DNA from: Eledone cirrhosa
Lineage: Eukaryota
Direction of reading: 5' to 3'
Length of the DNA stretch: 64,000 nt
NCBI GenBank assembly: GCA_964016885.1
Contig: OZ024743.1
Location: 155,310,001-155,374,000 of the forward strand
Part shown: one piece after another, positions 5,749-44,979 of the stretch
Layout: each line of letters starts with the position of its first letter
Numbering within the stretch: the stretch's first letter is position 1
The notes under the pieces: generated by a model
Seen by the model: only the letters and a program-made list of their open reading frames with translations
Database searches by the model: none
What the model was told of the DNA's origin: nothing
Position numbers and translations under genes: made by a program

Positions 5749-6155
5749 CCCGGTTCGAGATAAGCTCTACAGGCACAGAAGTGTCGTCAGCCGGAATTGT
5801 CCGGGATGCGCACAGAGCGACGAAACCGTTGTGCACGCACTGGTTCAGTGTCCGAGCATTGTTGACTTGTGGAGCTATGTCGAACATTTGCTGTCACGTG
5901 TTTGGACGGATCCGGTTATCGACTGAGTCCATGGCCGTGGTCTTTTGTGTGCTTTTCACCACGAGAGACCATCGGAAGTTTCCCTCTATTGGGGAATTTT
6001 TGTTGTTTGAATTTTTTTGATATTTCTATCTTCTTGTTATAACCTTTTTTACACAGCATAAACCCACTTCGTATCTTCCTGTACCGTTATGTGCCGTCTG
6101 TACAGTTTTTCTTCATGTTAGCCCTTGTGACCAATAAATAGACCATTATTATTAT
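5749..6155 (+). mobile_element. Tx1/L1-like LINE 3' fragment with internal deletion
   Basis: VRDKLYRH..CPGCAQSDETVVHALVQC (CCHC) and 3' UTR ending gcccttgtgaccaataaa..(att)n. Confidence 0.85.
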
Positions 6156-6460
6156 GATTGGTAGTATCGGTAGAGAGTCGGACACCATGCTTTGGAGCAT
6201 AGAGTTACAGACCTTTACGGTCTGAGTTCAAATCCCGCCGAGGTTAACTTTGACTGTCATCCTTACGGGGGTCGATAAAATAAAGTACCCGTAATTAACT
6301 GGGAAAAGAGTTACGGGCCTTTTATGGACTGAGTTGAAATCCTATCGAGGTTAACTTTGCCTTTCATCCTTACGGGGTCGATAAAATAAAGCACCAGTAA
6401 TACACTGGGATAATTGTTGGCCTTGTGCCAAATTTAGAAACAATTATTATTATTATTATT
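6156..6460 (+). mobile_element. Two partial SINE copies (6156-6303, 6306-6460)
   Basis: Same B-box and Nin core as 5342-5748; the second copy ends in the tail and (att)n. Confidence 0.88.
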
Positions 6461-9400
6461 GGTCTGATTGGACGTCTTTATGTTCGCTGTCGTAAGTCTC
6501 TTTATTTACCTGTTATAATTATTTGTTGTAAAGTTTGTGTTGTTGTGTAAAGGATATAAACCCTTGGACTTTTGCCTGTGAAGGGGAAAATATAATATTT
6601 GGGCCAAAAGTTCCAAATATTTGAACATTTTTCTTTTTTAAATTATCAAAAAAACAAACAAACCATGGCTGCTGTCGTGTGACAACGGTGTAACAGTTGA
6701 GAGGAGGGTTACAGACATTGATAAAACAAACACCGAGAATTGATACAACAAACACCGATAATACAATAGCGAGAATGACAACAACACTGAGAACACTAAT
6801 ATTAAAAACATTGCCACACCAACTACAACAGTGATAACAGCAACAACACCAACAACATCGTTTGTAGCAGTAGCAACAGCAACAGCACCAACAACAAAAC
6901 CAGTAGCAGCAGTAGCGGCTGCAATAATGGGAGCGCTGAAAAAGGGGCCACAACTTTCGCAGGAGTGGCCTGAAATATAGAATCAGTGCTAGTCACGGAG
7001 GAGCAGGTGGCAGCCGCCAGGGCCATGGTGACAGTAGATGACAATAAAGTTTCCCTGAAACCTCCACACGACTTTTAGAAGGATCAGCAGCTACTGGCGG
7101 TGGCTTACCGCATCGTAAGAAAACTGTCACATCGAGTTGAGAGATCCACGGAAGCTCAAATGCAAAAGGCCTTGGGGTGTGTCTGGACGCGCAAAGCCCA
7201 TATCACCCGCGGCAAAGATAAGCCACAGTAGAAGTACTTTTCGACCCCCCAACCCCAAGAGGCAAATTTTCACACTTTGGAAACACTAAAGAGTGAGAAA
7301 ATTGTCTCAGTGCCCTCCTACTGCGGGCAGAAAACTTGTGAGGGTCAAAGCGAACCAGGTCACGCCCGACGTGCCCATACCTTGGCTGGTTGCGTTTGTC
7401 GTTGTTGGAATCGAAGACAGGACCACCATACTGCAAATACAGAGAATGGGAATAGAGAACTCGTCAGGTATAGGCATGCAAATGCTAATACAAACTGGCC
7501 AGGTGTGTATCGACGCCATCCCAGATATCATATCCCTCGAGGAAGGACTCGAACTCCCTATAAACGTGGGAGGATGCCGCCCAAAGTGCTATTTCCGTGG
7601 GCAAAAGAGGCACCTCAGGAACCTTTGCCCGCAGGAGCAACCAAACAGAGGGAACCCCTGCTTCCAACGCTTCATACGTTGTTACCAAGAGCATGGCAGG
7701 CAATAGAGGCAGAAGACTCTTCTACGGTAAGTAGGAGAGCAATGCCCGTGGCACCCATACCAAGGCCACGGACGACTAAAACAGCGGCAGCAGTGGTGGC
7801 AACACTAGTAGCTACACTTGCAGTAGCAGCACCTACAACAAAATCGCCGGAAAGTTTTATACTACCACCACCAACAGCCGTGGAGCACATACCCATCCCA
7901 GACGCCACGGAATCCGCTCTTTAGTGTTAGTGGGTGACTGGAACGGTATCTTAGATGCACGCTGGGATTATGTGGGGCTAGTAAATAAGTGAGGAGGATG
8001 TAAAAGTATCACCAACCTGCTCAGATATTTTCAACTGTCTGACAGATACGACTGCAAATGTGGACCAGGGCAAAGCGCATCGGGTCATCCATATCGTATT
8101 TATATAGGGCATCTTTTTAGGGAAACAGATTAGGCTAGTGGAGGTTGTTCACAAATTAAAGTAGTCGACTACACGGACCATACATTTGTGATTGGTGAAG
8201 TTGACCTATATAGACTCCATAGGGAAGGGCCCGGTTGCTGGAAGCTGAACGCGTCGTTCCCGGAGCGTAAAGCTTATAGAGATCGGATTAGCGAATTGGT
8301 TAAGCGGGCGTTGACGGGTGCGTCACAACGGGAACTTCACAAATCACAAATGTATGACTGCACGAGATGTAAATACCCAGGTTTGGCTGGTCTACCCTAT
8401 GAGCTTTATGTGTATATGCCACACTTGTTCAGCAACCTCTTGGCACATGTCTACTGCCACTGACAGCAAGACAGGAGCAGTCTCAGTTTTGTGAGTCGGT
8501 CACCGGTGGCGCTGCTGACAAAAGACCCGAACAAGGGGGACATTATACACAACTTCAGGCCCATAATTCTGCTAAACGCAGATTTTAAGATTTTGGCCAA
8601 GGTGTTAACAAAGAGAGTGCCACTTGTCGTCGGTGATCTGGTGGGAGAGGCCCAGACATGTGCCATTCCAGACAGATCCATCCATGACAATCTCCATCTC
8701 ATGGGATACATCATAGAGAGGGGGTTAAGGTACCAGGCACAGGTTGGGCCCTGATCAATTTGGGTCAATCTAAAGCATTTGATAGGGTCGACCATCGGTA
8801 CCTGGCTGCGGTCCTCGAGGCCGCCTTCTTCAGGTCCGCTTTTAGGGGCTGGATCGCTGCGATGAACAGCGACATCTGCTCGATTGTGAGGGTGAATGGT
8901 CACCTGTCACATCCCTTCAACATCAATCGCTCGGTCAGCCAGGGTTGCACCATCTCGACCTCTTGTACCTATTGGCCCTCGAGCCGTTACTGAACAAATT
9001 GGAGACGAAGAGGAGGGTCCCACGCGAACTTGAATGCGGGAGATCCGTGTCAGCTTAATCCGACGACGTCCCCGTAGTGGTGTTGAGCACCAAACACGTC
9101 CAGATGGTCTCAAGAAATATGAAGCGGTGACAGGAAAAGAAAGATAAACCAAGAAAAGTCGGTGGGCTTGCAACTTGGCACCTGGAGAGGTAGGTCCTTG
9201 CCTTCCGACAGCGTCGTGGGGCGCTGGACGGAAGGACCGGTTGAATTATTCGGGGTCTGGTTCGGTACGGAACACCAGATGGAGAAACACTGGAGCGAGG
9301 TGACGAGCATGGTGGCCTCTCTCAACCCAGAAATGGAGGAGGCTGTCTCTGAAAGGTCCGACGGAGGTCGCGAATGCGCACATCGCGTCCGTCATCTGCT

Positions 9401-10632
9401 ACTTCATGACCGTCGTACCAAGCCCCCGCCCAAATCTCTGACCAAAATGGAGCGCCTTCTCTCCTGCCTTTTGTGGAAGGGACGTGCTCCGATGGTTAGA
9501 CGATGCTTTTGCATTCAAGACCCGTTGCATGGAAGACTAGGCATGCCGTGGCTGATACTACGCAATCATGCGCTGAGGTTGCGAATTCTCTGGTGCTTCC
9601 TTGACGGTGAACAGGTGTGGTCGCTGTTTGCCGGATACGCTTTTCCCCAGCTCGTCTCCTTGACGGAACTGCAGTCCTGGACCGAGGGATAGCGCTTGGA
9701 AGATGGAATGCCTCCAAGCGCTCACCGCCCTCTATCAGCTGGGCACTGATATCGGTGGAATATCCACCTCGTTGTTCTATAGAGGGCTAGTGGTGGCGAA
9801 GAGCGACGATCTTCTCGGGGATACTCTGGGCGTCGAAGACGATCAGCTGTTCGCTCTCTTCAAGAGAACTCTCAGCCCGGGGCCTATGGACAACTTCCAG
9901 AAATGATGGCCTGGCAGCGCTACTGGGGAGCGTTGCCGGTCCGGGATAATCTCTACAGGCACGGACTTTCTGTCAGCGGAGCTTGTCCGAGAACCGCGCA
10001 TGGCGATGAAACCGTCGTGCACGCACTCGTCCAGTGTCCGAACACCTGTTTGCACGTGTAGAACGGATCCGGCTATAAGCTGAGTCCATCGTGAAGATTG
10101 TCCCACCGCCTTCCTTCAACCGAGAAGGACAGGCAGTTTTATCTGCCTGCTGGCCATGATAAAAGAGATTGTATGGTGGACACGTCTGAAAGGATTGAAG
10201 TAGATAATTTCCTCTTCAGTGACGCCCTCATTAACTTTTTCAGGTTTTACATGAAGAGGAAAGTCAGGGTCGATAGGGAAGTGCTGACCTCCAGCCAGTT
10301 TATTGAAAGGTGAGTGAGCGAGGCTAGAATTGCCCGTGAGAATAGGTCTACCCTGAGCGTGTGGCTGTAGCATTGTAGGAGGAAGACTGGAAGAGGGCAT
10401 TTGCCCTAGCTGCCAGGGTAACCGTGGCTATTTTTTGTGGGCTTTCTACACGAGTAACCCTCGGAGGTCTCACACCCTATTGGGAATTTTTCATTGTTTC
10501 ATTTCATCACACTCTGTTTTTGTTTTATTTTTTTACACGCAGAAATGCCCATTTGTATTGTCCTGTGTTGTCCTTAATGTTATACTCTGAGTCAACACTT
10601 GCGGTTAATAAAGAAAGCATTATTATTATTAG
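6461..10632 (+). mobile_element. Tx1/L1-like LINE copy A, 5' end present, internally deleted and decayed
   Basis: ORF1 remnants with degenerate zinc knuckle (RPKCYFRGQKRHLRNLCP); APE remnant LVGDWN..D; GPGCWKLN; RT NFRPIILLNADFKILAK, Q.KAFDRVDH, SVSQGC; flanked on both sides by (att)n. Confidence 0.88.
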
Positions 10633-10641
10633 TAGTAGTAG

Positions 10642-11766
10642 TGCTGCCAGCAACCTCTACGTGGAGGACTGGGCATTCCGTGGCTAATGATCTGCAAACA
10701 CGCGCTGAGGCTGCGGCATCTTCAGATATACTCCCTAAACGATGAGCAGGTGTGGTCCCCGTTTGTCAGACGGGCCTTTCTGCAGCGCGTTTCTTTGACT
10801 GAACTGCAGTCCTGGGTCAAGAAGAGACCGAAACTGGGTGACTGGCATCTGGAATGTTGCCAAGCACTCACTGCCCTCTACCAGGTGGGCAATGCGGTCA
10901 GTGGAACTTACACTCTCGAGTTCTATAGAGGATTAGTGGTGGGCAAGTGCGACGACGCACTCGGAGAGGCTCTGGGAGTCGACGAAGTCGAATTAAGCAG
11001 TCTGTTCCGGAGGACTTTCGAACCGGGGACGATGGATCATTTCCAAAAATCCCTCACTTGGAAGTGCTACCGGGGGGTCACTGCCGGTTCGAGATAAACT
11101 CTACAGGCACGGAAATGCTGTCAGACGGACCTGCCCCAGATGCGCGAAGACCGACGAAACCGTTCTGCACGCACTCGTCCAGTGTCCGTGCATTACTGAC
11201 TTGTGAAGTTATGTCGAACAGCTGCTGTTGCGTGTAGAACGGATCCGGCTACCGGCCGAATCCATAGTGAAGATCGACCCGTCGCCTTCTTTTGGCCAGG
11301 AAGGGCAGGCAATTTTCCTCTGCCTGGTGGCAGTAGCGAAAGAGGTTGTATGGTGGACGAGATTGAAAGGACTGAAGACAGACACTTTTCTCTTCGGCCA
11401 ATCCCTCATCAACTTTTTCAAGTTTCACTTGGAGAGGAAGTTGAGGATGGAGAGATGTGCTGCCCCCAACCAGTAGATGTACTGAAAAGGGGGTGAATGT
11501 GGCGAGAATGGCCTACTCTGGTCAAGCCTGTAGGTAGGTAAATTTGAGGAGGAGAGCTGTGCACTTCCAGGGTGCTCTCGAATCGTCGGGTCGTTCAGGT
11601 GTGGTTCCTGAGCGAACTCTGCGTGGTCAACCCCCCTATTGGGGAATTTTTTGTTATTGTTATTCATATTGTTTACTTGGTTTTTCTGTGAAACCCCACT
11701 GTCCAAGTTTTTGTAATGCCCCCTATATGTCGGCCCTTGTGGCCAATACATGAAATCATTATTACT
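10642..11766 (+). mobile_element. Tx1/L1-like LINE copy B, 5'-truncated
   Basis: HALRLRHL..QVWSPFVRRAF, CCHC region, VWWTRLKG; 3' end ggcccttgtggccaata..gaaatcattatt. Confidence 0.88.
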
Positions 11767-17380: not shown

Positions 17381-18030
17381 GTGAGTGTGGGGGGTGTATG
17401 TATTTGTGTGTGCGTCTGTATGTGTATGCCCATCCTGGCATACGTATGTATTGGTTTAAATCTTCACTATTTACTTTTAGTATTTTAATAACCTCTGTCA
17501 TTTTCGATTTCAATTTTATTTACATCATTCTTAAACTCCGGGGCTGGAAATCATTCTGTTATGTTAAATAGAATATTAGTCTAACGACTCCCTTTATACC
17601 ATAAACTTAGTCTTGTCTTTGCATGAACTTGTTCTTCACGTTCCACATAACGACGTATTATCCTCGCTTTTTCCCGTTCATTGTCAGGGAGCGTCTTCAC
17701 GAACCAAAATATTGTCTTCCTGTTTTCGTTCGGTTGGAACGTTTCTAGAAATATTGACTTCTGCGTTCATAGATTACTCTCAGTTCAATTTGAATGGCAA
17801 ATTCCTGTTTCATCGATTTTCTCCGTAACCATGGAAGCTTGTACCGTAAACGTCGACTCAACGCATCTTCGGCTCATTCTGCATAAGTGTGTACATTTTC
17901 GCTGCATTCCACCAAGCCGTTTCGACGTTTATCCGACTAAACCTACTTACTTAAATATACAACGTCCGACCACTTATATATAACCAATTTATATAGTAGA
18001 TAAATAATAATAATAATAATAATAATAATA

Positions 18031-18363
18031 GTGCAAGAGAAGGAGAGGGAGAAAATTAACCGATACCAGGTCCTAAAGTGGGAGGTGAAAAGGATTTGGA
18101 ACTGCCATGAAGTCAAAGTGATCCCGATTGTCATAGGCGCACTGGGGACTATCTCCAAAAGTTTCCAGGGATGGTTAAAGAAAATCGGCCCCTTCACGCT
18201 TTTTCACGCTTTTTGGAACGCTTCAAAAGGCATGCTTGCTTGGAACAGCAAGAACCCTCCGATACGTCCTGAATATCTGAGGCTGCAGGTAGTGGCTTGA
18301 TATTCAATCCAACGGACTTTCCAGTTAACCAACATCAATGACTGAGATTCAAGGAATAACAAC

Positions 18364-18412
<49 letters not shown>

Positions 18413-18437
18413 GTAATAATAATAATAATAATAATAA
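18031..18437 (+). mobile_element. Dong/R4 family-1 3' fragment inserted in (TAA)n
   Basis: Near-identical to 22497-22830 (EKINRY..VIPIVIGALG); (taa)n on both sides. Confidence 0.95.
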
Positions 18438-19164
18438 CAAATATTCAACTTTGTATTGTACACTGTATATCCAAAAAAGAAAAGGGCTATAAATGGAAGA
18501 AGAACCCCCCCCCCCTCCTCTCCTCTGGCTACACTATATAGGACAGCTAAACTCACCAACACCAGAAACTAGATACACCACCCACCCCATTATCTGTGTA
18601 CACTAAACACAACAGCCAGATAACGACATTTTCACCTTCACCGCCACCGCTCACTACGGCCATCATTACCACCACTATCCCATCACCGCCGCCACCACCC
18701 CTTGACTCCTTCACTACTGCCACCGCTACAGCACCATCACTACAGTAATACGGTCACATCACCGCCACCACTGCCTCGGTATCGACATCACCACCACCAC
18801 TGTCTCAGTATCGCTACCGCCGCCAGTCTCCCACTTCCCCCTGCTGGCTGCTACTTCCACATTATAGAATTCCTACTACTAACAAAGAGGAAGGCATCAA
18901 AATATATAGATAGACTCAAAAGAAAAAAGAAAAAACAAACAACAAAACCAAAGCAGCACAGCAACAACAGCAAAAAACGAGAAAAACAAACAGAGAAAAA
19001 CAAAAACAAAAAAAGAAACCCCCAAAACGTAAAGAAAATAAGAATGAAGAGAGAAGCAGGCGGACGGACAGAGAAGAGGGGGGAAAAAGTAAAACTTAAA
19101 AAACTAAAACTAAGTCAGACATTCGAACACTACATTACAATGAAACTTATGCTTATTCATTTTT

Positions 19165-22100
19165 GGGGCCCTTTCTGCCTGTGTGTTTGTTTGTTTATGT
19201 GTGTTCGTATACAGCGTGGTGATAATGCCACACAAGGGCCAAGTGGGATGGCGGATCCACAGATGGCTATGTAAACATACATTCGCCAATCCTCGATAAG
19301 AGTGTTTAAATATCGAACATAAACAGTTCGAATAACGGTGAAATGGAGACTAGAACGTCATGTGACAGACTCTCACCGAACAGGTGCCCCCTGGCTCAGC
19401 AGCAGGAACCTGACTGTCAACCTAATACTGCTGATGTTGGAGGAAGGAGAAGAAGGAAAGGGGCCAGAACCAACTGGACGAAAGAATTGAATAGAACTGT
19501 TATGCAATGCTACCTGAAAAGTAACCCCAAGGAGAGGGGCTACAGGAGACGGATGCATAACATCTGGAACGAGATTGGTTTATTTAAATTAGATGAACAA
19601 AAATTGGCCGGGCAGGCTCGGGTAATAAGAACTAATGGGTGGATAAGCGAGCTGGAACTGGAGGAACTGAGCAGAGAGAATGGCTTGGAGATGGCGGGTG
19701 TAGTATGCCAGACAAGCGAGCCGGTGGGAAATGAAGGTGAGGAGGTCCTGAGAACGGAGGAACCACCCGAAGCAGACAATGATCTGCATACTGAGATAAA
19801 TAATACCTGGAACAGAGATACGGCCACTGAGGAGATGAATGCTGACGGGCTAGAACAAGATTCGGTTGACATCCTAAATTTAGTGGTAGATGAATTGGAC
19901 AATGATAGTGGGAGACCTATGAACCTAATATTTGTAGACAGGAAAAAGTTAAAAGAAACAACAGCTAAGGTAAACAAAGTCATCCCATACCTTGAGGCGA
20001 GGAGCCTTCACCAGTGCAACAATATCCTCAGAGCAACAGCAAATACGGTGAGGAAACTACTTGGTATAATAGCGAGAGGAAACAACAGACAAGAAAGAGC
20101 AGAGCCGTGGTGGAAGAAGCGACTGAGTGGGCAAATCGGGGAAATGAGAAATGACATAGGAAAGCTTGAGTCACTACTGAATGGGACACTAAAAAACATA
20201 GGCACTAAAAGTAGACTGGAAATAAAATACAAAACTAGGAGTAAAAAGCTAAATATTATCATAGAGGAATTGAAGCAACGCATTGTAGCAAAGAGTGCAA
20301 AAATCAGGCGATACGAGAAGAGAGTCAGTCAGTATAAACAGAACCGCATGTTCGACAACAACCAGAAGATGCTGTTTGGACAGCTTGAGGGGAAAGAAAG
20401 AGGCAACGACTTGATCCCTGGGGCGGAGCAAACTAAAACATTCTGGAGAGGAATATGGGAGCAGGATGTTAGACACAATGCCCAGGCAGGGTAGATTGAG
20501 ACAGTAAAGAGGGAGATCGGTGAGCAGGCACAGCAACAGACTGATTTGAGTATCACAGTTGAAACTCTTAAGGGACAAGCCAAAAAACTAACCAACTGGA
20601 AATCACCAGGCCCAGATGGTGTGCAGGGGTATTGGATTAAACATTTAACATCCCTCCACCCGAAGCTGACGGCCATGTTCAATGACTGCTTGGTGTCGGG
20701 TGAGGTGCCAGAGTGGTTGACAAAAGGTACCACAGTTCTGATAATGAAAGACCGAATCAAGGGTAATGATGCTAGCAACTATAGACCTATCACATGTCTG
20801 CCCGTAATGTGGAAACTGTTGACGAGCATTGTGTCTGAGGAAATCTACCATCACCTCCACACAAACAACTTGTTACCGGACGAACAGAAAGGATGCCGAA
20901 AGAAGTCACGTGGTACAAAGGACCAGTTGCTTATTGATAAGATGGTAATGGGGAATTGCAGGAGGAGACACACTGATCTTGCCATGGGATGGATAGACTA
21001 CAGAAAGGCATTTGACATGGTGCCTCATTCCTGGATCACCAAAAGCCTGGAGATCTTCAGGGTGGCAGATAACATCAGACAGTTGCTAGGCAGGAGTATG
21101 GGGTCCTGGGAGACAGAGTTGACATCAACTGGAGTATCCTTGGGAAGCGAGAAGATCAAGAGAGGTATCTTCCAGGGAGATAGCCTGTCCCCTCTGTTGT
21201 TTGTCCTTGCCCTGATGCCCTTGACCATTATGCTGCGAAAAGTGAGAGCAGGATACAAGTTGGGAAGGGGAGAGCTTACCATCAATCACCTCCTCTTCAT
21301 GGACGATCTTAAGCTTTTCGGGAAAAGTGAGAAGGAGTTGGATGCGCTTGTTGACACTGTCCGTATTTTCAGCAGTGATATATGTATGCAGTTTGGTATT
21401 GGTAAATGTGGAGTCATTGTGATGAAGAGGGGTAGGTTGACCAGAAGTGAGGCGATCCAGATACCAACAGGTGAGATGATAAAGGAAATTGACTCTGAGG
21501 AAGGATACAAGTATTTGGGCGTTCTGGAGGCTGATGGCATAAAGAACAAAAAAATGAAGGAATTGTTAAGAACTGAATACATTCGGAGAGTAAGGAGCGT
21601 ATTGAAGTCACATCTGAACAGCAGAAATGCCATAAGCGCAGTAAATTCCCGAGCTGTGTCTATTATTAGGTACAGTGCGGGAATTCTGAGATGGAATGTT
21701 GCTGAACAAAAAGAAATGGATAGGAAGACTAGGAAGCTATTGACTATCTACAACATGTTCCACAAGAGGAGTGATGTCGATAGACTCTACCTAAGGAGAT
21801 CTGAGGGTGGAAGAGGTCTCATCAGCATAGAGGACTGTGTTCAGATGGAGAAAAACAACCTATACAAATACGTGACCTATAGTAAGGAGCCAATGCTCAG
21901 AACTGTACTGAAGGAGGGGACAGTAGGCCAGGGGATGTCCAAGGAGGAAATAACATCAAGGAGGAAGAGCAGCCTTAAGGGAAAATCCCTTCATAGTACC
22001 TTCTTTGAGAAAACTGAATTTAGAGATCCACAGACATGGAACTGGTTGAGAAGAGGAGACCTCAAAAAGGCTACAGAAGGAATGCTAATGGCTGCGCAGG

Positions 22101-22855
22101 AGCAGGCCCTCAAAACGAAGTGGTTGAAGCACCATATCTACAAGGAGGAGGCTAGCCCACTGTGCAGGATCTGTGGAGAGAGAGAGGAGACTGTGGCTCA
22201 CATTGTGTCCGAGTGTAAACACCTAGCCCAGACCCACTATAAGGGCTGGAGACACGATGTGATGGGCAGGGTGATCCACTGGCACCTATGCAAAGTAAAC
22301 AATTTACCACATTCTGAGAAATGGTATGAGCATAGGCCAGAGGCGGTGATGGAGAACAATCAGGTGAAGGTGCTGTGGGATTTTAGGATACAGACGGACA
22401 AAAAACTGGAACACAATAGACCTGACCTTGTGGTTGTGGACAAAGAAAAAAGATCGTGTCTGATTGTGGATGTGGCCTGCCCGTTCGACACGAGAGTGCA
22501 AGAGAAGGAGAGGGAGAAAATTAACCGATACCAGGACCTAAAGTGGGAGGTGAAAAGGATTTGGAACTGCCATGAAGTCAAAGTGATCCCGATTGTCAGG
22601 CGCACTGGGGACTATCTCCAAAAGTTTCCAGGTATGGTTAAAGATAATCGGCCCCTTCACGCTTTTTGGAACGCTTCAAAAGGCATGCTTGCTTGGAACA
22701 GCAAGAACCCTCCGATACGTCCTGAATATCTGAGGCTGCAGGTAGTGGCTTGATATTCAATCCAACGGACTTTCCAGTTAACCAACATCAATGACTGAGA
22801 TTCAAGGAATAACAACAATAATAATAATAATAAGACAATAATAATAAGACAATAA
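19165..22855 (+). mobile_element. R4/Dong-clade non-LTR retrotransposon family 1, apparently full length (5' boundary approximate)
   Basis: Single long ORF with RT, CCHC and RLE; about 80-nt 3' UTR ending in (TAA)n. Confidence 0.93.
19343..22733 (+). CDS. Reverse transcriptase / CCHC zinc knuckle / restriction-like endonuclease polyprotein (about 1130 aa; TAG at 20492-20494, 2-nt deletion near 22598)
   Basis: ORFs 19343-20494 and 20546-22753 share one frame; motifs SPGPDG, NYRPITCLP, EQKG, IDYRKAFDMVPH, GIFQGDSLSPLLF, LFMDD, YKYLG, CRIC..ETVAHIVSEC, RHD, RPDLVVVD..IVDV, EKINRY. Confidence 0.92.
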
Positions 22856-25255
22856 TATGTTCAAAAACAACCAAAGAAACTTCTACAGAAAATTGGTAAG
22901 TCAACAATATCTGCTAAATCAATACCACCCAAGGAGGAAGTGCAAGAATTCTGGGAAAAGATCTGCGCCGAAGAAAAAGTTCATAACATACATGCCCCAT
23001 GGATAGACAGACAAATGAAAGAAACAGCTCACCTTGAAGAACAAACATGGGAAAATATAACAGTTGAACAGTTGCGCTTGGCTCTAAGAAAAACCAGCAA
23101 ATGGAAATCCCCAGGAAAAGACAAAATACAAAACTTTTGGATAAATCCCTTCACAGAGTCTCATGAGCTGTTAGCCCAACTTTACAATGAAATAGTTAAG
23201 GAGCCAGAAAAGATACCATCATGGCAGTAAACGGCATTACATTCCTGCTACCGAAGAATGATGAGACAAACAATCCCAAAAATTACAGACCGATAACCTG
23301 CTTGACCACAATGTATATCATTTTAACATCAGTCCTAACTGAATACACATATGACCACCTGATAACAAATGACCTATTTTTTATTGAGCAGAAAGGGTGT
23401 AAACGAGGCTCATATGGCTGTAAGGATCAGCTTCTGGTTAACAAAATGATACTGGAAGATTGTCATAATAGACACAAAAATCTATCGATTGCTTGGATAG
23501 ATTATAAAAAACATTCGATAATTTGCCACACAGTTGGATTGAAAAATGTTTAGAGATTTTCAAAATATCACCCGTTGTCAGGAGGTTTTTGTCATTCAGT
23601 ATGAAGACATGGAAAACGACACTCCTTTTGAATAGTGAAACAAAATCACTGGAAGCTGGAGAAGTTAATATTAATTGTGGAATTTTTCAGGGTGACTCTT
23701 TATCACCGCTTTTATTCTGCATCGCACTTACACCATTAAGTAAAAACTTACAAATATCTAGGTGTTTGTGAAGGAGACGGAATCAAGCACTCGACAATGA
23801 GGGAAAGGATAAGGAAGGAATGTTACCGCAGAGTAAGAGCAATCTTAAGAACGGAATTGAATGCAAGCAAAAGGATCGATGCCATAAACACGCTTGCCAT
23901 ACCAGTAGTAACCTACAGTTACAATGTCATCAATTGGTCAAGCACAGAGATCCGTAGGCTCGATACAAAAATTCGAAAATTCTTAACCATGCACAGAATA
24001 CATCACCCTAAGGCAGATACGGATAGAATATATCTCCCTAGGAAAGAAGGAGGACGTGGGTTAATCCAGATAGACAGTGCGTTGAAAACTGAAACAATTG
24101 GATTATCTACATATCTAAGGGAATCACATGATTGGATGATCAAACTCGTTTTGAAACACGAAAGCATCAAAAGATCATATTCCATTACAAAAGATGCACA
24201 AAGATACAGTAATGGACTACACATTTCAGAAGTCCCATTTACTGCTGAAATGGAAAACACAGAAAAAGCAAAGCAGGTAAAAGTAACTGCAAAGAAAGAA
24301 CTGCTACAAAAACTGGCTAAGAAATGGCAAGAAGAGCCTCTGTATGGAAGATACTCAGAAAGATCTAACAATCCTGATGTTGACAAAACTTTAACCCATC
24401 AGTGGTTGGCATCCTCTGGACTGAAATCGGAGACTGAAGGACTGATTATATCAGCACAAGATCAGTGTCTGCCAACAAAAAATTACCAAACCAACATAAT
24501 ATAAAAATGGATGCAGCCCATTATGCCGTGTATGTAAAAAACAACCAGAGACCATTGACCATATAATTTCATTTGCAGTGCTATAGCTCCAACCTAATAT
24601 CAAAACAGGCATGACAGAGCTGCACAATACATACATTGGATAATGTGTAAGCATTTTGACCTGCCCAATCAAAAGAATTGGTGGAAGCATCAACCACCTC
24701 CCATACTTGAAAAAGATCACATCTCAATCTTGTGGAACTTTAGCTTCCAAACAGACCAAAAAATAGATGCAAATAGACCTGATATAATATTGAAGGACAT
24801 TAAAAAGAGGGTATGCCTGCTAATTGATATGTCTGTTCCAATAGACAAGAATGTATCTATAAAAACATTTGAAAAATTGAGCAAGTATAAGGACCTGGAG
24901 ATAGAAATTGGAAAAATGTGGAAATTGAGAACTAAAACAATACCAGTGGTTGTAGGCGCTCTGGGAATGATACCTAAGGGGTCTATTGATTACTTATCGC
25001 AAATCCCAAGAAACCCGCGTATAGGAGAAATACAAAAGATAGTACTAATGGGAACTGCCCATATACTAAGGAAGATTCTGTCAATATAAGTACATCACAA
25101 GTCTAAACACTAAAGATGCATGTGTGAGTATGTATGTTCTTTCTTGAACATGGGGGACCTTGTTGTCTCTTGAGGTCACTGGGTGTGACTTGGTGATAAC
25201 TCGTATGAACATAAAGCAAGATAAATGCAACTGTAATAATAATAATAATAATATT
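22856..25255 (+). mobile_element. R4/Dong-clade family 2, 5'-truncated, catalytic YMDD region deleted
   Basis: WKSPGKD, NYRPITCL, EQKGCKRGSYGCKDQL, GIFQGDSLSPLLF joined directly to YKYLG (about 23745), RPDII..IDMSVP..EKLSKY..VVGALG; ends in (TAA)n. Confidence 0.92.
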
Positions 25256-25261
25256 AATAAT

Positions 25262-28200
25262 ATTGCTTTCTTTATTAACCACAAGGGTTTACATAAAGAG
25301 GACATTAAGGACAGTACAGCACAATACAGGAAGGTACAAAACGGCATTTCTGTGTGTAAAAAAAAACAAAAAACAGAGGATGTAAAAATAGAACAATGAA
25401 AACATTGCCCAAAGGGGGTGGGAGACTTCCGAGGGACATTCGTAGAGAAAGCCTATTAAAAAGCCACAGTGACCCTGAACACGAAGGCAAGTGCCTTCTC
25501 TCAGTTTTCCACCTTTAATTTACAGACACATACTCATAGCAGGCCCATTCACTCGGCCCATTCTTGCTTCTCTCACCCATCTTTCAACAAAATGCTGGGA
25601 AGAGAGAACTTCCCTCTCTACCCTGATTTTCCTTTTCAAATGAAATCTGAAAAAGTTAATCTGGGCATCACCGAAGTGGTAAGTGCTCGTCTTCAGCCGT
25701 TTCAAACGTGTCCACCATACTATCTCTTTCGCCATAGCCACCAGACAGATAAAAACTGCCTACCCTTCCCGGCTAAAGGAGGAGGGCGGGGCAATCCTCA
25801 CGATGGACTAGCTGATAGCTGCATCTGTCCTACACGGGACAGCAGGTGTTCGACATGAACCCACAAGTTTGCAATGCTCGGACACTGGACGAGTGCGTGC
25901 AGGACGATTTCGTCGCCCTGCGCGCATCTGGGACATGTCTGACTGACGGCACCTCCATGCCTGTAGAGTTTATCCCGAACGGCAAAGCTCCTCGGTAGCG
26001 CTGCCAGGCCAGGTATTTCTGGAAGTTGTCCATCGGCCCCGGCCCGAAAGTTCTTCCGAAGAGATTGGCTAGTTGATTTTCGTCGACGCCTAGCGTTTCC
26101 CCAAGTACGTCGTCGCTCTTCCTCTCCACTAATCTTCTATAGAACCCCAAGGTGGAGTTTCCACCGATCACATTGCCCGATTGGTCGAGGGCTGTTAGCT
26201 CCTGAAGACATTCCAGTCTCCATGCGCTGCCTCTCGGTCTTCGTTTCACCCAGGACTGCAGCTCCGTCAAGGAGACGACCTGGGGAAAGACGCGTCTAGC
26301 AAATGGCGACCACACCTGATCACTCCCGAGGAAGAGGTGGAAATGTCGTAGCCTGAGCACGTGTCTGCGCATCATCAGCCACGGCATGCCCAGCTGGATC
26401 TGTCGGGAATGGCGCATGTCTGCGCCTCTCCTACCAGGCCACCAACGACAAGCGCCAACCTCTTTGCTAACACCTTGGCCAAAATCTTGAACTCTGTGTT
26501 TAGCAGAGTTAAGGGCCTAACATTATCTATGTTATCCCCCTTGTTCGGATCCTTTCTCAGCAGCTCCACAGTTCCTCGGCTCACAGAACTGGGAATTCTC
26601 CCGTTCTGTTGCCAGTTGCAGTAGACGTCCGCCAAGAGGCCTCCGAACAAGTCTGGCATGTACGTAAATTTCGTAGGGCAGACCATCCTAACCAGGCGAT
26701 TTACCCCTTGTGCAGCCAGCCATTGCCTCCCGTACTTCAGCGGCTGTTATCGGATTTTGGCAACACTCCGCCTTAGTGGCCCAGAGTCGCGGCAGTTCGG
26801 CGATGTAGACACTAAAGTCCATCCCTCGATCTGGCCTGCCGCTACCCCCGAAATGTCATGCGAAGTGTCGCTGAAAAGCTTCACACATTTGCCCGGTATC
26901 GAGTAGCATGCGTCCGTCGTGGTCCACCAAAGACCGATCGTGGCTTTGTCGCCACGACGCACCTACGCCATTCGGGCCCATTGAAGGGCTTTCGTCCCCT
27001 CGTGTCTGAGAGCACGCATCCTAACTCTGACTGACAGCGCAGCCTTCGAGCTTTGAATTAAAGAATTGGTAAAAGGATAATTTCGCCGCAAATACGTCGG
27101 TCGCGATGCCTTTCCTAAGCGCCTCGTCTAATGTTCTAACTAGTTCTCCCTCTGCTCTATTTTTTCTCTATTACTAAAGCCTTACTAAACCTAATGGACT
27201 CTATTCTAATCGCTCTTTTCAGAGCAAACCACCACTTGTTGTTGACGATGGCCCCCGTCACTAGTTCGCTAATCCGGTCCCTGTAGGCCTTGCGCGCTGG
27301 TAAGGACGCGTTTAGCTTCCAGTAGCCGGGACCTCGTCTATGAAGCCTATCTAAGTCAAGCACACAGATCACGATCTAGATATGATCTGGATGACCCTAT
27401 GCGATTTGTCCAAGTCCACATTGGCCTATTCGGGAAATCCAATCGGTACCTGTCAGACAGTTCTATACGCCTGAGCAGGTTGGTGAGGCTCTTGCACCCC
27501 CCTCTCCTATCCGCTAATCCCACACAGTCCCAGTGTGAATTAAGATCCCGTTCCACTAAAGAGCGGGACGTTCCAGGAAAGGTCTCCAGACACCGGAAGA
27601 AATCAGGCCGCCCTACTACTTTTGGGGCTTAGACGGCCACTAGCCTGAAAGCTTGCCCGTCTCCGCTGGTCACGTCTAGCACCACCAACTTACCTTCTGG
27701 GTCCAGGAAGATGGCTCGAATGGCGAGATCCAAACCTCTCCGAAAAATCACAGCAACTCCTTCCCCCGATCAAGGACGGCTGGGTGATGCGTACACATCG
27801 TTACCGCCGAAAATCGGTGCGAAGGCCCGTGCATCGGAGATTCTGGTCTCGCTGATGGCCACTACATCTATGTTTAGTGACCAGAGGTTGTTGAGCAGGT
27901 GGCCCTGCTTCCATGACGACCCCAAGCCACGCGCATTTATGCTGCCTATTCTGAGTAAGGTCATGTTGAAATGGAGTGGAAAAAATGGGAAAGACCACTT
28001 ACCTTACTTCTCGTAGAGGAAGGATGGTTTCTCCATCCTTTTCACTGCTTCTGTCGCCCTCCGGAAGGATATCCTTATACATCCTCCTAGAGAGTACTTG
28101 TCAGAAGTCTCCGATGTCTTTGGGGAATTTTTGTTTTAGTGTCGTGTACGTTTTCTGTGTGATGCGAGTGATTATTATGTCTGGAGGTAGTGTGAACTTT

Positions 28201-30130
28201 GCGGTTGTTGTGTAGTCTTTTTCTGTGATGCTGGTGTTGAGTTGGATGTAGCGTAATAAATGGTTGTTGTTCAAATTTATTGCTATGTAGTGTGTATCGT
28301 TTTGGTTTTTTGTTTTGTTTGCGTTTGCTGTGGGTTTGTTTCTGTTTCGCATTTTGGTGACTTTTTTTGTGTTGGTGATGACGGTGTTTGGGTTAATGAT
28401 GGTGATGGTGTTGGTGTCTGTGGTGATGGGGTTGGTGCTGCTGGTGTGGATGGTGTCATAGCTGTCCTAATTTTTTTGTTTGATAGATTATTTGTTTCCC
28501 TGTGTATTTTGTTTTTGGTGGTGGAAGGAAGAGGTTTTTCTTTTTTGGTTTCTTTTTCTTTTTTTTTCTTTTTTCCTGATACCGTTTCTCACTCATCCTC
28601 GTCACAATCTGTCTCAGTTGCGGTAGGTCGCGGAGTGGAAGATCCTCCACGGGCATTGGTTTTGGTTGTGGCGTGGTGGATGGTGTAGGCGCTGATGCTC
28701 GTTCTGCCGCGTTGGGTGGTGATGTGTTGGTTTTGCTCCTGTTGCTGGGTTGTTTCTGTTACAGTTGCTTCTGTTGTTGCTACTACAGTTGTTGCTGTCA
28801 TTTCTGCTGCTGGTGGTGTTGATGGTTGAGTCACTGGGGTGGGTAAGAGAGGTGGCCTCAACCTTTTAGCCTGAGGGCAGAAAGCCCGTAGGTGGGTTCC
28901 TTCACCACAAACGACACACCTAGGCCTTCTGCCCTCGACGATCACGGTGAGGTGGCTGCCGTCAGTGAGGTCTATTACCTCTGGGATCTCCTCAATGCTT
29001 ATTTGGTCCGCTTGGATAAGGAGCTCCACCCCAGATCCGGACAAGTTCTCCTGCTTTTCTTTCGCTATTTCGATTATCTTGGTATTGGCCTCGATGCCGG
29101 CGAGGACGGCAGCCATTAGGCAGGAAATTTCGATGGCCATGGAACGTGGGTCAACATGATCTTCATGACTCTCTGGCCACAATAGCTTGGGACGAGTGTG
29201 AAGTCATCACTTCTTAATGGGGCCTTGGAGTGTTCTCTGGCCTCCTGTGGTGTTTCAAAGAAAACGTCCACGGTTCCATGTTTCTGCCCACGTCTGATGT
29301 GGGTATTTTTTTCCCACACATATGCCAAAGCTTTTTGGATTTGGGACATGTTCCACTCTGCGCGATTGTTTGTTAATCGTCCGATAAGACACGGTGCATA
29401 GGCGCCGATGCTCCTTTTTATTAGGTGTGTGTGTGGGGGGGAGGGGGGGGGTAAGGCTGACCTTGTACCCATCTTTCTTTACCATTTTTGTGACTTCTTC
29501 TAATTCCTCCTGAGTTACCTGGAATGCTTCGCACGTTTTTGCTGCTCTAGCAAAAGACAGGGTTTTCTTATTCTCATTGTTGCTGTTGTTGTTATCGTTA
29601 TTTTTGTTATTGTTAATTTTAGTTTCAATCGTGGTGGTGGTGGCGTCAGTGGTGTTCGGTGTGGAAGAGTTCATTTCGATATCACGAGATAATTTATTTT
29701 TTTCTTTTGTTTCTTTTGTCGCTGTGGTGGTGGTAGGAGTGGCGGCTTCATTACCTGCAGTCATTTGTAATGGCGGGAAATGAATGTCTGCTTGAGACAA
29801 ATTTAAAATATTCCTACTACTTATATTTTTAGTGTTGGCAAACGTAGTAATATTTGCAATGGTGGTGTCGATGTGACGTGTTAGTTTGTGAGGAAGGTGT
29901 GACACAGAGTCGTCCATGATTTTTCAAAGAAAAATTGTTTGTTTGATAATTATAAAAGTTTAAATTTTGGGCTCAAGGCCCCAATCTTTTTGAGTGTCCT
30001 TTTCAGAAAATAATGTATGTGTACGTATATACAGTTAACAATAACATTTTCCATAAATGTCAATTTTAAACAACTGTAAATAACAAAATTTTGCGGAGCT
30101 CACGATAATACGATTTACTACGTAGATTGC
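25262..30130 (-). mobile_element. Tx1/L1-like LINE copy C, both ends present, RT core deleted
   Basis: ORF1 pieces 29917 to about 28003 with CCHC knuckle RPRCVVCGEGTHLRAFCP; ORF2 ATG 27964 (IGSINARGL, DVVAISET), WTW..SYLDR, GPGYWKLN, VRPLTLLNTEFKILAK; (att)n at both ends. Confidence 0.9.
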
Positions 30131-30131
30131 C

Positions 30132-30166
<35 letters not shown>

Positions 30167-30167
<1 letters not shown>

Positions 30168-30206
30168 TGTTTCTACTTTAGGCACAAGGCCAGCAATTAC
30201 CAAGTG

Positions 30207-30210
<4 letters not shown>
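30167..30210 (-). mobile_element. SINE 3'-terminal fragment embedded in (TAA)n
   Basis: tgtttctactttaggcacaaggccagcaattac is the reverse complement of the SINE tail. Confidence 0.8.
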
Positions 30211-30252
<42 letters not shown>

Positions 30253-30255
<3 letters not shown>

Positions 30256-31011
30256 GGCTACAGAAGGAATGCTAATGGCTGCGCAAGAGCTCGCACTCAA
30301 AACGAAGTGGGTGAAACACCATATTTACAAGGAGGAGTGTAGTCCACTCTGTAGGATCTGTGGAGAGAGAGGGGAGACGGTGGCTCACATTGTATCTCAG
30401 TGTAAACACCTAGTCCTGACTCACTCTAAAGGCTGGAAACATGATGTGATGGGCAGGGCGATCCACTGGCACCTATGCAATGTAAACAATTTACCACATA
30501 CTGAAAAGTGGTATGAGCATAACCAGAGTCCGTGATAGAAAACGATCAGGTGTAGGTGCTGTGGGATTTTAGGATACAGACGGATAATAAACAGGAACAC
30601 AATAGTCCTGACCTGGTGGTTTTGGACAAGGAAAGAAGATCGTGCCTGATTGTAGATGTAGCCTGCCCATTTGACACGACAGTGCAAGAAAAAAGAGGGA
30701 GAAAATTAACCGATACCAAGACTTAAAGTGGGAGGTAAAAAGGATTTGGAACTGCCATGAAGTCAGAGTCGTCCCGATTGTAATAGCCGCACTATGTACT
30801 ATCTCAAAGAGTTCCCAAGGATGGTTAAAGAATGTTAGTCCAGCTCCGCTTTTTGGAACACTTCAAAAGGAAAGCTTGCTGGAAACAGCAAGAACCATCC
30901 GAACGTCCTGAATATCTGAGGCTTCAGGTAGCGGCTTGATATTCATTTCAACAAACTTTCCAGTTAATTAACATCAATGATTGAGCCTCAAAGAACAACA
31001 ATAATAATAAT
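30253..31011 (+). mobile_element. Dong/R4 family-1 3' fragment
   Basis: EGMLMAAQE..CRICGERGETVAHIVSQC, RLE remnant, 3' UTR and (taa)n; colinear with 22066-22830. Confidence 0.93.
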
Positions 31012-34000
31012 GATTTCGTTATTGGCCACAAGGGCTGACATCAAGAAAAACATTACAGACAGCACAGGACGTTGCAGGACGGTACGATGTGGGTTTTGTG
31101 TGTGTAAAGATTTTTAGTATTTATATAAGATAAAAAAAAAGACATAGAAACACATATATATATAAACAATAAAAATGAAAATTGAATAAATGAAAAATTC
31201 CCCAATAAGGGGGAAACCTACGAGTGTTACTCGTGGTGAAAACCACACGAAAGACCACGGCAATCTTGACCACCAAGGCAAGTGCCCTCCCTCAATTTTT
31301 CACCATTCCTCAAACTACAAGCGTATATTCAGAGCGGTACCGTTCACTCGAACCATTCTCGCTATATTCACCCACCTTTCAACAAACTTGCTAGAAGGCA
31401 GCACTTGCTTCTCCACTCTGATTTTCCTCTTCAAGTGAAACTTGACAAATTTAAACAGGGATTCGTCGAAGCGGGAAGTGTCAGTCTTTAACACTTTCAA
31501 CCTTGTCCACCACACAATCTCTTTCGCTATGGCCACCAGGCAGATGAAAACCGCCTGCCCTTCCTCCTCGAAGGTAGACGGCGAGACTATCTGCACAATG
31601 GACTATGTCGATCGGTCCTACACGTGACAGCAACTGTTCCACATAGCTCCACAAGTCAGCAATATTCGGCCACTGAACGAGTGCGTGCACGACAATTTCG
31701 TCGCCCTGCGCATTTCGGACAGACTCGGCTGACAGTATTTCCGTGCCTGTAGAGCTTAACTCGAACCGGCAAAGCTCCCCGGTATCACTGCCACGCCAGG
31801 GATTTCTGGAAGTTATCCATAGGCCCTGGGCTGAAAGTTCTCTGGAAGTTAGCAAACAGATGATTTTCTTCGACCCCCAGGATCTTTCCGAGAAGGTCGT
31901 CGCTCCTCCCCTCCTCTAGTCCTCTATAGAACGCCGAGGTGGATGTTCCACCGATACTTGTGCCCAGCTGGCAGAGGTCGGTGAGCGCCTGGTGACATTC
32001 CTCGGTCTTTTCCTGACCAAGGGCTGCAGTTCTGTCAAGGAGGCGAGCTGTGGGAAAACGTGCCTGGCAAACCGCGAACACACCTGTTCACCATCAAGGA
32101 AGCACCAGAGATGTCGCAGCCTCAGTGCATGTTTGCGCATAATCAGCCATGGCCTGCCTAGTCCTCCACGCAACGGGTGTTGACAGCAGATGAATCGTCT
32201 GACAATGAGAGCGCGTCCCTTCCACAAAAAGCAAAAGAAGAGGAGCTCCATTTTGGTGAGAGCTGGGCCGGGGCATCGGACGACTGTGAGGTGGTAGCAG
32301 ATGACGGATGCGATGTACGCATTCGCCACCTCTGACCGTCTTTTCAGTGACAGCTTCCTCTCGGCCCATTTCTGGGTGAAGGAGGCCACCCTGCTCGTCA
32401 CCTCGCTCCAGTTTTTCTCCATCTGGAGGTCCGGTACGAACCAGATACCTAGCAACGCCCCCTGACGCTGTCGGATTGCATGAACTTGCCTCTCCAGGTG
32501 CCGAGCTGCAAGACCACCGACATCTCCTGGATTATCCTTGCTCTTGTCACCGCTTCGTATTCCTTGAGATCGATGACGAGCATCTGGACGTTTCTGGTGC
32601 ACGACAGGACCACGGTGAAGTCGTCGGCTTAAGCCGACTCGGATTTCCCGCATCCTAGTTCACGTGGGACGCCCCTCATCGCCCCCTGTTTGCGCAGTAA
32701 CATCTCGAGATCCGATACGTACAAGAGGGACTAGGAGACAACCATGGCGTACCGAGCGCATGATGTTGAACGACTGCGAGAGGTGACATTCACCCTCACA
32801 ACTGAGCAGATGTTGCTGTACATCCCAGCAATCCAACCCCTGAAAACGGGTCCGAAACCAGCTGCCTCGAAGACCACCGCCAGGTACCGATGGTCGACCC
32901 TATCAAAAGCTTTGGATTGATCCAAGTTGATCAGGGCCCGATCCGTCCCAGGCTCCTTAACCACCCTCTCTGCGATGTATCGCATGAGGTGGAGGTTGTC
33001 GTGTATGGATCTGTCTAGAATGACGCATGTCTACGCCTCTCCCACCAGAGCCTCGATGACAAGCGCCAACTTGGTTGCTAATACCTTGGGCAAAATCTTG
33101 AACTGTGCGTTTATTAGAGTTATGGGCCTGAAGTTATCGATAACATCCCCCTTGTTCGGGTCTTTTCTCAGCAGCACCACCACTCCCCGGCTCACAAAGC
33201 TGGGAATGCTCTCTTTCTGCTGACAGTGGCAGTAGACGTCTGCCAAGTGGTCACCGAACAAGTCTGGCATAAATGCATAAAGCTCGTAGGACAGACAATC
33301 CAAACGTCGCGATTTACTCCTCGGACAGTTAGCCATCGCTTCCACGTATTTCACTGGCTGTTAATGGCTTCTCGCAACTCTGTGCTGCGGTCGTCGAGAG
33401 CTGAGGCAGTCCGTCGAGGTATGCACTGATGTTCATATCCGATGCGGCCTGCCGCCGCTCCCGAATAGTTGAGCAAATTTCTGTTGAAACGCCTCAAGCC
33501 ATTGCTCGGGTTTGTTGAACACGCAGCCGTTTTTGTCAGACAAAGACCGAATTGTGGCTTTGTTCCCACGTCGCGCCCCTGCCACCCGGGCCCATTGGAC
33601 GGCTTTCATTCCCTCGTGTTTCATAGCACGCGCTCTAGCTCTGACAACGCAGCCTTCGTGTTTTGCGTTGAAGAATTGGTCGAGTGCCAATCTCGCCGCA
33701 ATCACGTCGGTTGCGATGCCTATCCTAAACGCCTCTTCTAGCTTTGTGACTAGCTCTCCCTCTACTCTATTTTCCTCTATCACAGGTCCTTTTCTAAACC
33801 TAATCGACTCTACTTTAATTGCCCTTTTCAGGTCAAACCACCATCTGTTGTTGACGACCGCTCAGCTCAGCGCCCGCTTAACTAATACGCTAATCCGGTC
33901 TCTGTAGGCACTGTGCGCCAGGAAAGACGCGTTGAGCGTCCAGTAACCAGGTCCTTGTCTATGAGGTCTGTCTATGTCGTTCTCGCAGATCACAAATTTG

Positions 34001-34815
34001 TGGTCTTTGTAGTCGTCTATTTTAAATTGTGGACAACCTATACTAGCCTTATCTGGTTCCCTGCAGAATACCCTATCTAGATACGATCTGGATGACGCGA
34101 TGCTGTTTGTTCATGTCCACATTGGCACATTTGGGGTGATCCAGTCGATACCTGTCAGACAGTTGAAAACGTCTGAGCAGGTTGGTGAGGCTCTTGCACG
34201 CTCCTCGCCTATCCACTAGCCCCACACAATCCCAACGTGCATCCAAGATACCGGTCCAGTCGCCCACTAACACTAAAGAGCGGGACGTTTCCAGAAAGGT
34301 CCCTAGACGTCTAAAGAATTCTGGCCGTCCTATCCCTGTCGGGGCATAGACGGGGAATGGCTACTAGCCTGAAAGCGTTGCCTTCGGAGCCATTCACGTC
34401 CAGCATCACCGACTTACCTTCTGGGTCCAGGAAGATGGTCCGTATGGCGTGACCCAAGCCTTTTCGAAACAACACAACCACTTCGCTCCCCGCTCCCGTA
34501 ACCGTCGAAAATCGGTGCCAAAGCTTGCGTTTCGGAGATTCTCGTCTCGCTGATGGCCACGACATCTATGTTTAGTGACCTGAGGTCATTAAGCAAGTGA
34601 CTCTTACTTCCAAACCGAGCTCAAGCCACGCACGTTTACACTTCCGATCCTGAATACGGCCATGTTGGGTGAGGAATGGGGCAAGTGAGAAAGGATCACT
34701 TACCTTCATCGTCTGGTGAAGCGTGCGGTGAACCGTCCCTTCGGCTTGTCGTCGGCTCTTCTGTAAGTATATCCGTGTATACTCTCCCGTTGAGTGTCCC
34801 TCCTAGGTCTCTGAA
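31012..34815 (-). mobile_element. Tx1/L1-like LINE copy D (ORF1 tip plus decayed, nearly complete ORF2)
   Basis: ORF2 ATG at 34663; DVVAISET, LVGDW, NFRPITLINAQFKIL, LINLDQSKAFDRVDHRYL, WWTRLK; 3' end gcccttgtggccaataacgaaatc(att)n. Confidence 0.9.
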
Positions 34816-34816
34816 T

Positions 34817-35412
34817 TCACAATGGCTTACACAAATATAACATTAAGGACAACACAGGACAATACAAATGGGCATTTCTGCGTGTAAAAAAAACAAAAAC
34901 AGAGATTGACGAAACAATGAAAAATTCCCAATAGGGGTGTGACCTCCGAGGGTTACTGGTGGAGAAAGCACACAATAAAAGTCACGGTTACCCTGACCGC
35001 TAGGGCAAATGCCCTCTTTCAGTTTTCCTCCTACAATGCTACAGGCACACGCTCACGGTAGACCCATTCAAACGGGCCGTTCTTGCCTCTCTCACTCACC
35101 TTTGAACAAACTGGCTGGAAGTCAGCACTTCCTTCTCCACCCTGATTATCCCCTTCAGGTGAAACCTGAAAAAGTTAATGAGGGCTTCACACCGAAGAGG
35201 AAAGTACGGTCTTCAACCCTTTTAGACGTGTTCACCATACAATCCCTTTTACCATGGCCACCAGGCAGATAAAAACTGCCTGCCCTTCTTGGCTAAAGGA
35301 AGGCGGCGGAGCAATTTTCACGATCGACTCAGCTGATAGCCGGATCCGTTCTACACGTGACAGCAGGTGTTCGGCATAAACTCACAAGTCAGCAATGCTC
35401 GGACACTGGACG
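34817..35412 (-). mobile_element. Tx1/L1-like LINE 3' fragment (copy E)
   Basis: Reverse complement closely follows 10030-10600 (C-terminus and 3' UTR). Confidence 0.88.
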
Positions 35413-35415
35413 ACT

Positions 35416-35450
35416 GATAATAATAATAGCAATAATAATAATAATAATAT

Positions 35451-35481
<31 letters not shown>

Positions 35482-35525
35482 AAGAAGAAGAAGAAGAAGA
35501 AGAAGAAGAAGAAGAAGAAGAAGAA
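35416..35525. repeat. (TAA)n-(GAA)n compound microsatellite
   Basis: Directly visible. Confidence 0.98.
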
Positions 35526-41620: not shown

Positions 41621-41719
41621 ATTCTAATCTAAACTATAATAAAGGAAGGTCTGTGGGACTGCGTACGGTTTATTTTTGTGTTACCCCGTTAGTAAAATAA
41701 GTTGCATTACTTTGAATAA

Positions 41720-44334: not shown

Positions 44335-44427
<93 letters not shown>

Positions 44428-44928: not shown

Positions 44929-44979
<51 letters not shown>

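Follow-up and report, generated by a model that had tools for sequence, protein, structure and literature searches.

Dong and Tx1-type LINEs occupy (TAA)n microsatellites on opposite strands in the genome of Eledone cirrhosa

The window analysed here is a stretch of 64,000 nucleotides of the 3.0-Gb genome of Eledone cirrhosa (contig OZ024743.1 of assembly GCA_964016885.1, positions 155,310,001 to 155,374,000, forward strand). Between 18003 and 35451, it contains an array of retroelements that are joined to each other by AAT repeats. An earlier note on this DNA had described the array as polarised, and the sequence, a self-BLAST and an annotation that used natural element copies as its library all agree with this description. 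All the tracts read (AAT)n on the + strand, the four Dong pieces are on the + strand, and the three Tx1-type LINEs and a SINE 3' fragment are on the - strand. The features of this array and of a second one are the following:

5345..11757, all + strand: second array, four SINE and three Tx1-type pieces joined by (ATT)n
18003..18029, + strand: (AAT)9 tract that opens the array on the left, 5' flank of a truncated Dong
18030..18363, + strand: 3' fragment of Dong family A (best relative 96.7% identical among the loci compared)
18364..18437, + strand: (AAT)n tract separating two Dong A copies
18438..22816, + strand: almost complete copy of Dong family A, short of about 180 nt at its 5' end
22817..22857, + strand: interrupted (AAT)n tract
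22858..25233, + strand: 5'-truncated Dong family B (best relative 97.9%)
25234..25262, + strand: tail-to-tail tract common to Dong B and a Tx1-type LINE
25263..30131, - strand: Tx1-type LINE of subfamily A, with its 5' head (best relative 94.0%)
30132..30167, + strand: (AAT)12 tract, from SINE tail to Tx1 head
30168..30209, - strand: SINE 3' fragment of 42 nt (from the L091 map and the annotation)
30210..30254, + strand: (TAA)15 tract
30255..30999, + strand: an older 3' piece of Dong family A (best relative 90.8%)
31000..31011, + strand: (AAT)4 tail-to-tail tract
31012..34817, - strand: Tx1-type LINE of subfamily B, 5' part absent (best relative 91.4%)
34818..35416, - strand: oldest Tx1-type 3' fragment, without its last ~15 nt and tail (82-87%)
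35417..35525, + strand: (AAT)n followed by (AAG)25, where the array ends on the right

The Dong A copy at 18438-22816 is the youngest of the array (best relative 99.3%). Its single ORF, with a reverse transcriptase (RT), a CCHC knuckle and a PD-(D/E)xK nuclease, is interrupted twice, at 20492-20494 by a stop and near 22600 by a frameshift. The Tx1-type LINE at 25263-30131 carries an ORF1 with a putative CCHC knuckle and an ORF2 with APE, RT and zf-RVT domains, and it is decayed, with two internal deletions. From right to left, the best-relative identities are 82, 91, 91, 94, 98, 99 and 97%, each being the best of a biased sample and a rough proxy for age. Such graded ages (copy identities of ~82-99%) fit a stepwise growth of the array. 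The order in which two neighbours arrived cannot be read from pure repeat.

As the 3' tails set their own polarity, it is the 5' junction that constitutes an informative test. In the array, seven of the eight 5' junctions lie in a tract of the expected strand, one has no tract and none is on the wrong strand. The claim that there is no exception to the polarity thus stands for wrong-strand junctions, but one junction, at 34817/34818, is without a tract; it is the only one of its kind in the array, and it looks like a deletion. Both of the tail-to-tail junctions that had been noticed do share a single tract (25234-25262 and 31000-31011). The second array was also read correctly, with (ATT)n tracts and with SINE and Tx1 pieces that are all on the + strand; neither self-BLAST nor annotation found a Dong in it.

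Other features of the window deserve mention. The left flank of the main array (17437-18000) is a high-copy repeat to which no class was assigned. Two tandem Dong A copies (+ strand) lie at 58261-63601, with no tract at their join (~60667) and with (AT)n in place of (AAT)n at a 5' junction, and a Dong B piece begins near 63906. Inverted repeats, possibly MITE-like, flank (TA)n/(AC)n runs at 44288-44515, 45863-46931 and 53915-54246.

The two groups of LINEs rely on different enzymes. An intact Dong A ORF of 1141 aa (L246) lacks an APE; its RT is followed by a CCHC knuckle and by a PD-(D/E)xK motif, and these motifs are conserved in our alignment. Pfam finds RVT_1, a weak zf-RVT and no Exo_endo_phos in this protein, and its best PDB matches are R2 proteins. 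This single-ORF architecture is that of the Dong/R4 clade, as is the insertion into TAA repeats. The Dong B protein is 39-41% identical to that of Dong A. Over their first ~350 nt, however, the 5' UTRs of the two families share 75% identity (L254, L256 and L259 against L246), which suggests either an exchange between the families or a strong conservation of a promoter or ribozyme. We also considered the 18438-19300 segment as a + strand piece of Tx1 ORF1, which would have been a polarity exception, and rejected it: this A/C-rich segment is the Dong 5' region, present in 29/29 other loci. That this region was borrowed from Tx1 is not supported with the Tx1 heads compared: there was no tblastx match, the region shares with these heads one 18-nt low-complexity match, and the 3 of 30 local alignments that scored above all 60 shuffles lie in A/C-rich stretches.

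The minus-strand LINE has the two ORFs of the L1 group, with an N-terminal APE, an RT and a C-terminal zinc finger in ORF2. Pfam recognises Exo_endo_phos, RVT_1 and zf-RVT, the catalytic motifs align, and the best PDB match is human L1 ORF2p, over 825 aa. Its protein scores 304 bits to an automatically named "Transposon TX1" protein vs 165 to human L1, and its closest named relative is from Argonauta hians (56%). In ORF1, which has no Pfam match, a CxxC-x4-H-x4-C motif is visible, a candidate for the CCHC knuckle that ORF1 has in the Tx1 clade. A sequence-specific target, another feature of this clade, is displayed by 142 of 151 heads, and less so by truncated copies (17/47). An RT tree, built without curated Dong, Tx1 or L1 references, splits the Dong and Tx1-type groups. 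We assign the element to the L1 group, and its membership of the Tx1 clade is likely but not proven. Dong ORFs of 1119-1141 aa were found in 12 of 20 full-length loci vs none of 20 Tx1 copies with an ORF2 above 1000 aa, so the two groups may not be concurrently active: judging from these ORFs, Dong looks active now and Tx1 less so. Dong makes up ~1.3-2.3% of the sampled DNA, and Tx1-type elements ~2.9-3.6%.

The polarity seen in the window extends to the whole genome. For the Tx1-type LINE, exact heads lie directly after TTATTATT in 142/151 cases genome-wide. All 30 best DNA matches to the head follow (ATT)n (the window copy included, two having a common flank), as do the first 30 pattern matches on C1, 29 of which end exactly in TATT, and for three head types 71/71 heads are in or beside ATT tracts. 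Counting junctions from the elements, over loci L001-L260 and the window after approximate de-duplication, we obtained 88 ATT, 0 AAT and 30 without tract at the 5' end (n=118), and 89 ATT, 1 AAT and 7 without tract at the 3' end (n=97). The tractless 5' junctions, defined by a 12-nt rule, all belong to truncated copies (30/47). By eye, several of them are inversions, internal deletions, library edges or two-unit ATTAT matches, and many are unexplained; inspection by eye revealed no convincing duplication at the latter. Older Tx1 subfamilies may be less specific, or their junctions may have been trimmed later.

The same count for Dong gave 128 AAT, 1 ATT and 30 without tract at the 5' junctions (n=159), and 144 AAT, 1 ATT and 4 without tract at the 3' junctions (n=149). 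Dong heads follow a perfect 8-mer of the AAT strand in 349 of 628 cases (267 and 82, in two phases); the remaining 279 have sloppy junctions, some after (AAG)n. For Dong A, under the 12-nt rule, 24 of 30 heads are on AAT, six on other sequence and none on ATT. The three wrong-strand calls of the two groups together all fall in tracts that switch strand. Such tracts, of the form (ATT)n-(AAT)m-(ATT)k, occur at L018, L055, L062, L116, L130 and L260, and look like short inversions or template switches inside the repeat. Also, at array edges and at the 5' junctions of Dong, (AAG)n is often found next to (AAT)n or in its place (L019, L040, L047, L085, L173, L174 and window 35452-35525): AAG may be acceptable to Dong, or one repeat may have been converted into the other. 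An empty-site test for Dong comes from a host repeat which, in two empty paralogues (L283 and L207), holds a tract of 12-13 units, and which in a filled paralogue (L289) has the same tract with a 1-kb Dong piece, ~19 units before it and 11 after. In this one pair, Dong inserted into a pre-existing tract and left tract on both sides; for Tx1, we found no filled/empty pair. The domains and junction counts thus bear out the idea that an RLE-type Dong and an APE-type, L1-group and Tx1-like LINE use one microsatellite from opposite strands, and the 5' flanks of full-length copies (142/151 and 349/628 heads) are tracts rather than self-made tails alone.

We then sampled by position instead of by element, with 80 stretches of 10 kb at fixed round positions (800 kb), which contain 50 tracts of four or more units, about one per 16 kb. 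The LINE ends beside these tracts have the expected polarity in 26/26 cases, nine of which are 5' junctions (one Dong end, in L207, was counted twice), a result that chance does not explain. A tract-centred table contained 20 apparent polarity exceptions, which are mostly strand-switching tracts or low-complexity matches. A Dong or Tx1 is found at 26/100 flanks of the sampled tracts of four or more units and at 19/46 flanks of those of seven or more, and for 18 of the 50 tracts neither flank carries an element that we recognised. The repeat itself is dispersed, with ~24,000 matches for C/G plus (AAT)7. The 3' region of an RTE-type LINE holds an internal (ATT)n tract (L251:2500-2900; L263, L281, L282, L288), which accounts for several of the "empty" tracts, and other repeat families therefore also supply targets. 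Furthermore, at least three unclassified repeats end in AAT/ATT tracts of fixed polarity and join arrays (L155, L192, L287; L238, L252, L260, L324; L002, L097, L197, L279, L284).

Tracts are also clustered. For the 100 long tracts that come first on C1, 41 of the 99 successive pairs are less than 12 kb apart vs 4.5 expected, and these close pairs are on the same strand in 38/41 cases vs 26/58 for distant pairs. Of 112 anchored LINE ends, 87 face a second LINE on the far side of the tract (six more loci, which had no tract, were dropped), to be compared with a background of 26% or 41%. An equal chance of insertion per tract, an expectation that we derived ourselves, would give about the background, so the arrays are over-aggregated. 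This would fit an array that grows itself, but the further idea that each tail makes a target for the other family is not supported as worded: the far-side neighbours are of the same family in 42 cases and of the other in 45. Tracts thus serve either family, with no special cross-feeding. The excess clustering could also come from regions that tolerate insertions rather than from self-growth.

The SINE is not specific to tracts. It covers 2.0-2.5% of the sampled DNA, has (ATT)3 within 40 nt upstream in 13/66 copies of the first 400 kb, and ends in a tail of four or more units in 2/43. Flanking duplications of at least 9 nt surround 15/43 copies vs 52/1806 controls (2.9%); they span 9-27 bp and mostly begin with ATTAT. 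When it lands in a tract, the polarity rule is kept at 14 of 16 flanks. The SINE is thus dispersed, following the same strand rule as Tx1 in a much looser manner. A likeness over the terminal 20 nt links it to three of four Tx1 ends (a score that 2-6 of 2000 shuffles reach, and that internal windows reach in 0/150, 4/534 and 7/834 cases); the likeness is absent for the fourth, and among the Tx1, Dong and RTE ends compared we saw none to Dong or RTE. The SINE likely borrows the Tx1 enzyme with a relaxed specificity, for short ATTAT matches. Rfam gave no match for it, RNA folding found no stem-loop common to the 3' ends, and no array bounded by the duplication of a founder SINE was seen by eye on 10-kb maps. 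In the window, seven SINE matches in both orientations, with short tails and some in tandem, lie outside the LINE arrays (40316-46177).

How can two unrelated enzymes share one repeat? Heads and tails of Dong lie in (AAT)n and those of Tx1 in (ATT)n, in truncated copies too. Target-primed reverse transcription starts at a nick, where the freed 3' end of the DNA base-pairs with the tail of the RNA. A Dong RNA with (AAU)n at its end would therefore prime on the ATT strand and a Tx1 RNA ending in (AUU)n on the AAT strand, and since each tail needs its own primer, the two would come to lie in opposite orientations in one repeat. Our main reading, to which we give a probability of about 0.8, is that Dong (RLE) and the Tx1-type LINE (APE) occupy (TAA)n on opposite strands, likely by such tail-paired priming at the nick. 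The sharp ATT|G phase of Tx1 heads might reflect a second nick at TT/A, a step favoured by L1-type nucleases, or an annealing of upstream (AUU)n read-through. As each insertion splits one tract in two, a growing array would offer more targets, and to either family; the SINE may seed new tracts.

The polarity could also come from strand-specific nicking alone, the Dong nuclease cutting the ATT strand first and that of Tx1 the AAT strand, with tails that are read-through or duplicated target. In TRAS1 and SART1, it is described as mainly the endonuclease that determines which target is chosen (PMC7265360), and the phase of Tx1 heads is indeed very sharp. However, SINE duplications begin with ATTAT(T), in agreement with the SINE tail, which points to a pairing of tail and target, and many truncated Dong junctions start with tract-like bases; on balance, we consider nicking alone a serious but less probable account. 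Whether nuclease or pairing chooses the strand cannot be told from sequence.

One may also suppose that only Dong is target-specific, that for the Tx1 LINE and the SINE a short ATTAT match is enough, and that these two collect passively in long tracts, with selection sparing the insertions made in existing arrays. The truncated Tx1 junctions without tract and the dispersion of a SINE with a similar 3' end would fit, but 142 of 151 full-length heads abut TTATTATT, and 71/71 heads are in or beside ATT tracts, although tracts of four or more units occur about once per 16 kb, so we hold this to be quite unlikely. A still weaker candidate is that arrays arise by tandem duplication of DNA, by unequal exchange between tracts or by assembly error. 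Some loci are indeed duplicated with identical flanks (L139/L140, L004/L006), and the one tractless junction looks like a deletion; against this, the eight pieces differ in truncation point, family and age, and the order of elements differs among arrays elsewhere, so that this explanation is largely refuted and its chance very slight.

A broader scenario can be sketched, which is speculative and, as a whole, doubtful. Octopod genomes would hold a self-renewing niche, in which a very abundant Tx1-mobilised SINE and other repeats seed (ATT)n across the genome, and two unrelated site-specific LINEs split this target by strand through the pairing of their RNA tails. Microsatellites would in this way become polarised stacks of several families, by the tens of thousands, and account for part of the LINE hotspots and of the genome size. 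Independently of this scenario, the pattern is real, genome-wide and well above chance. It adds an (ATT)n microsatellite target for APE-type Tx1-like LINEs, and it offers a natural experiment on what fixes the direction of insertion, in which two unrelated nucleases use a single repeat, the junctions number in the thousands and Dong ORFs that are intact can serve in assays. Given the shares of DNA of Dong and Tx1, their stacking may explain part of the transposable element hotspots reported in octopus.

In the literature covered, subscription papers, supplements and Repbase apart, we found neither an (ATT)n/(TAA)n-specific Tx1 nor opposite-strand arrays of Dong and Tx1. In Octopus vulgaris, Dong-R4 is abundant and recently active and L1-Tx1 is recently active (PMC13282606), and the word "target" does not occur in the portion of that paper covered. 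The combination is new, and the target probably so, within known kinds.

Dong of Bombyx mori, DongAg and DongBg, of the R4 clade, target TAA microsatellites (PMC3812793). The elements described here resemble them in this target and in their single ORF with RT, CCHC and PD-(D/E)xK; they differ in that the long mixed arrays bring together two families whose proteins are ~40% identical. The same paper puts Dong among the APE types, which conflicts with our PD-(D/E)xK alignment and with PMC4640811. It also places Kibi on TC and Koshi on TTC. These two and the crocodilian Tx1 families are APE-type LINEs of the L1 group on (TC)n, (TTC)n, (TTCC)n and (TTTC)n (PMC4494074), whereas here the target is (ATT)n, the host a cephalopod, and the target common with an RLE element. 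The crocodilian SINEU is mobilised by a Tx1 family, Tx1-Mar (PMC4494074), and tRNA-derived octopus SINEs are known (OK, OR1 and OR2, cited in PMC4758252 and PMC4824008); unlike in the SINEU/Tx1-Mar case, our SINE is without the strict target of its likely partner.

Keno (APE) and Utopia (RLE) have a common site in the U2 snRNA gene (PMC4640811). They insert at the same site with the same 3' flank, within a gene, not on opposite strands of a microsatellite, and their target is not renewed by insertion. TRAS1 and SART1, at silkworm telomeres, build arrays in which the two families face opposite ways within a single simple repeat (PMC7265360, PMC10088271). They are APE elements of the R1 clade, and their repeat is telomeric, whereas here the enzymes are unrelated, one being RLE-type, and the repeat is dispersed; the Dong/Tx1 pair works like the TRAS/SART pair without being a member of that group. 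Each ingredient of the system thus has a precedent, and their combination in Eledone cirrhosa extends, rather than overturns, existing knowledge.
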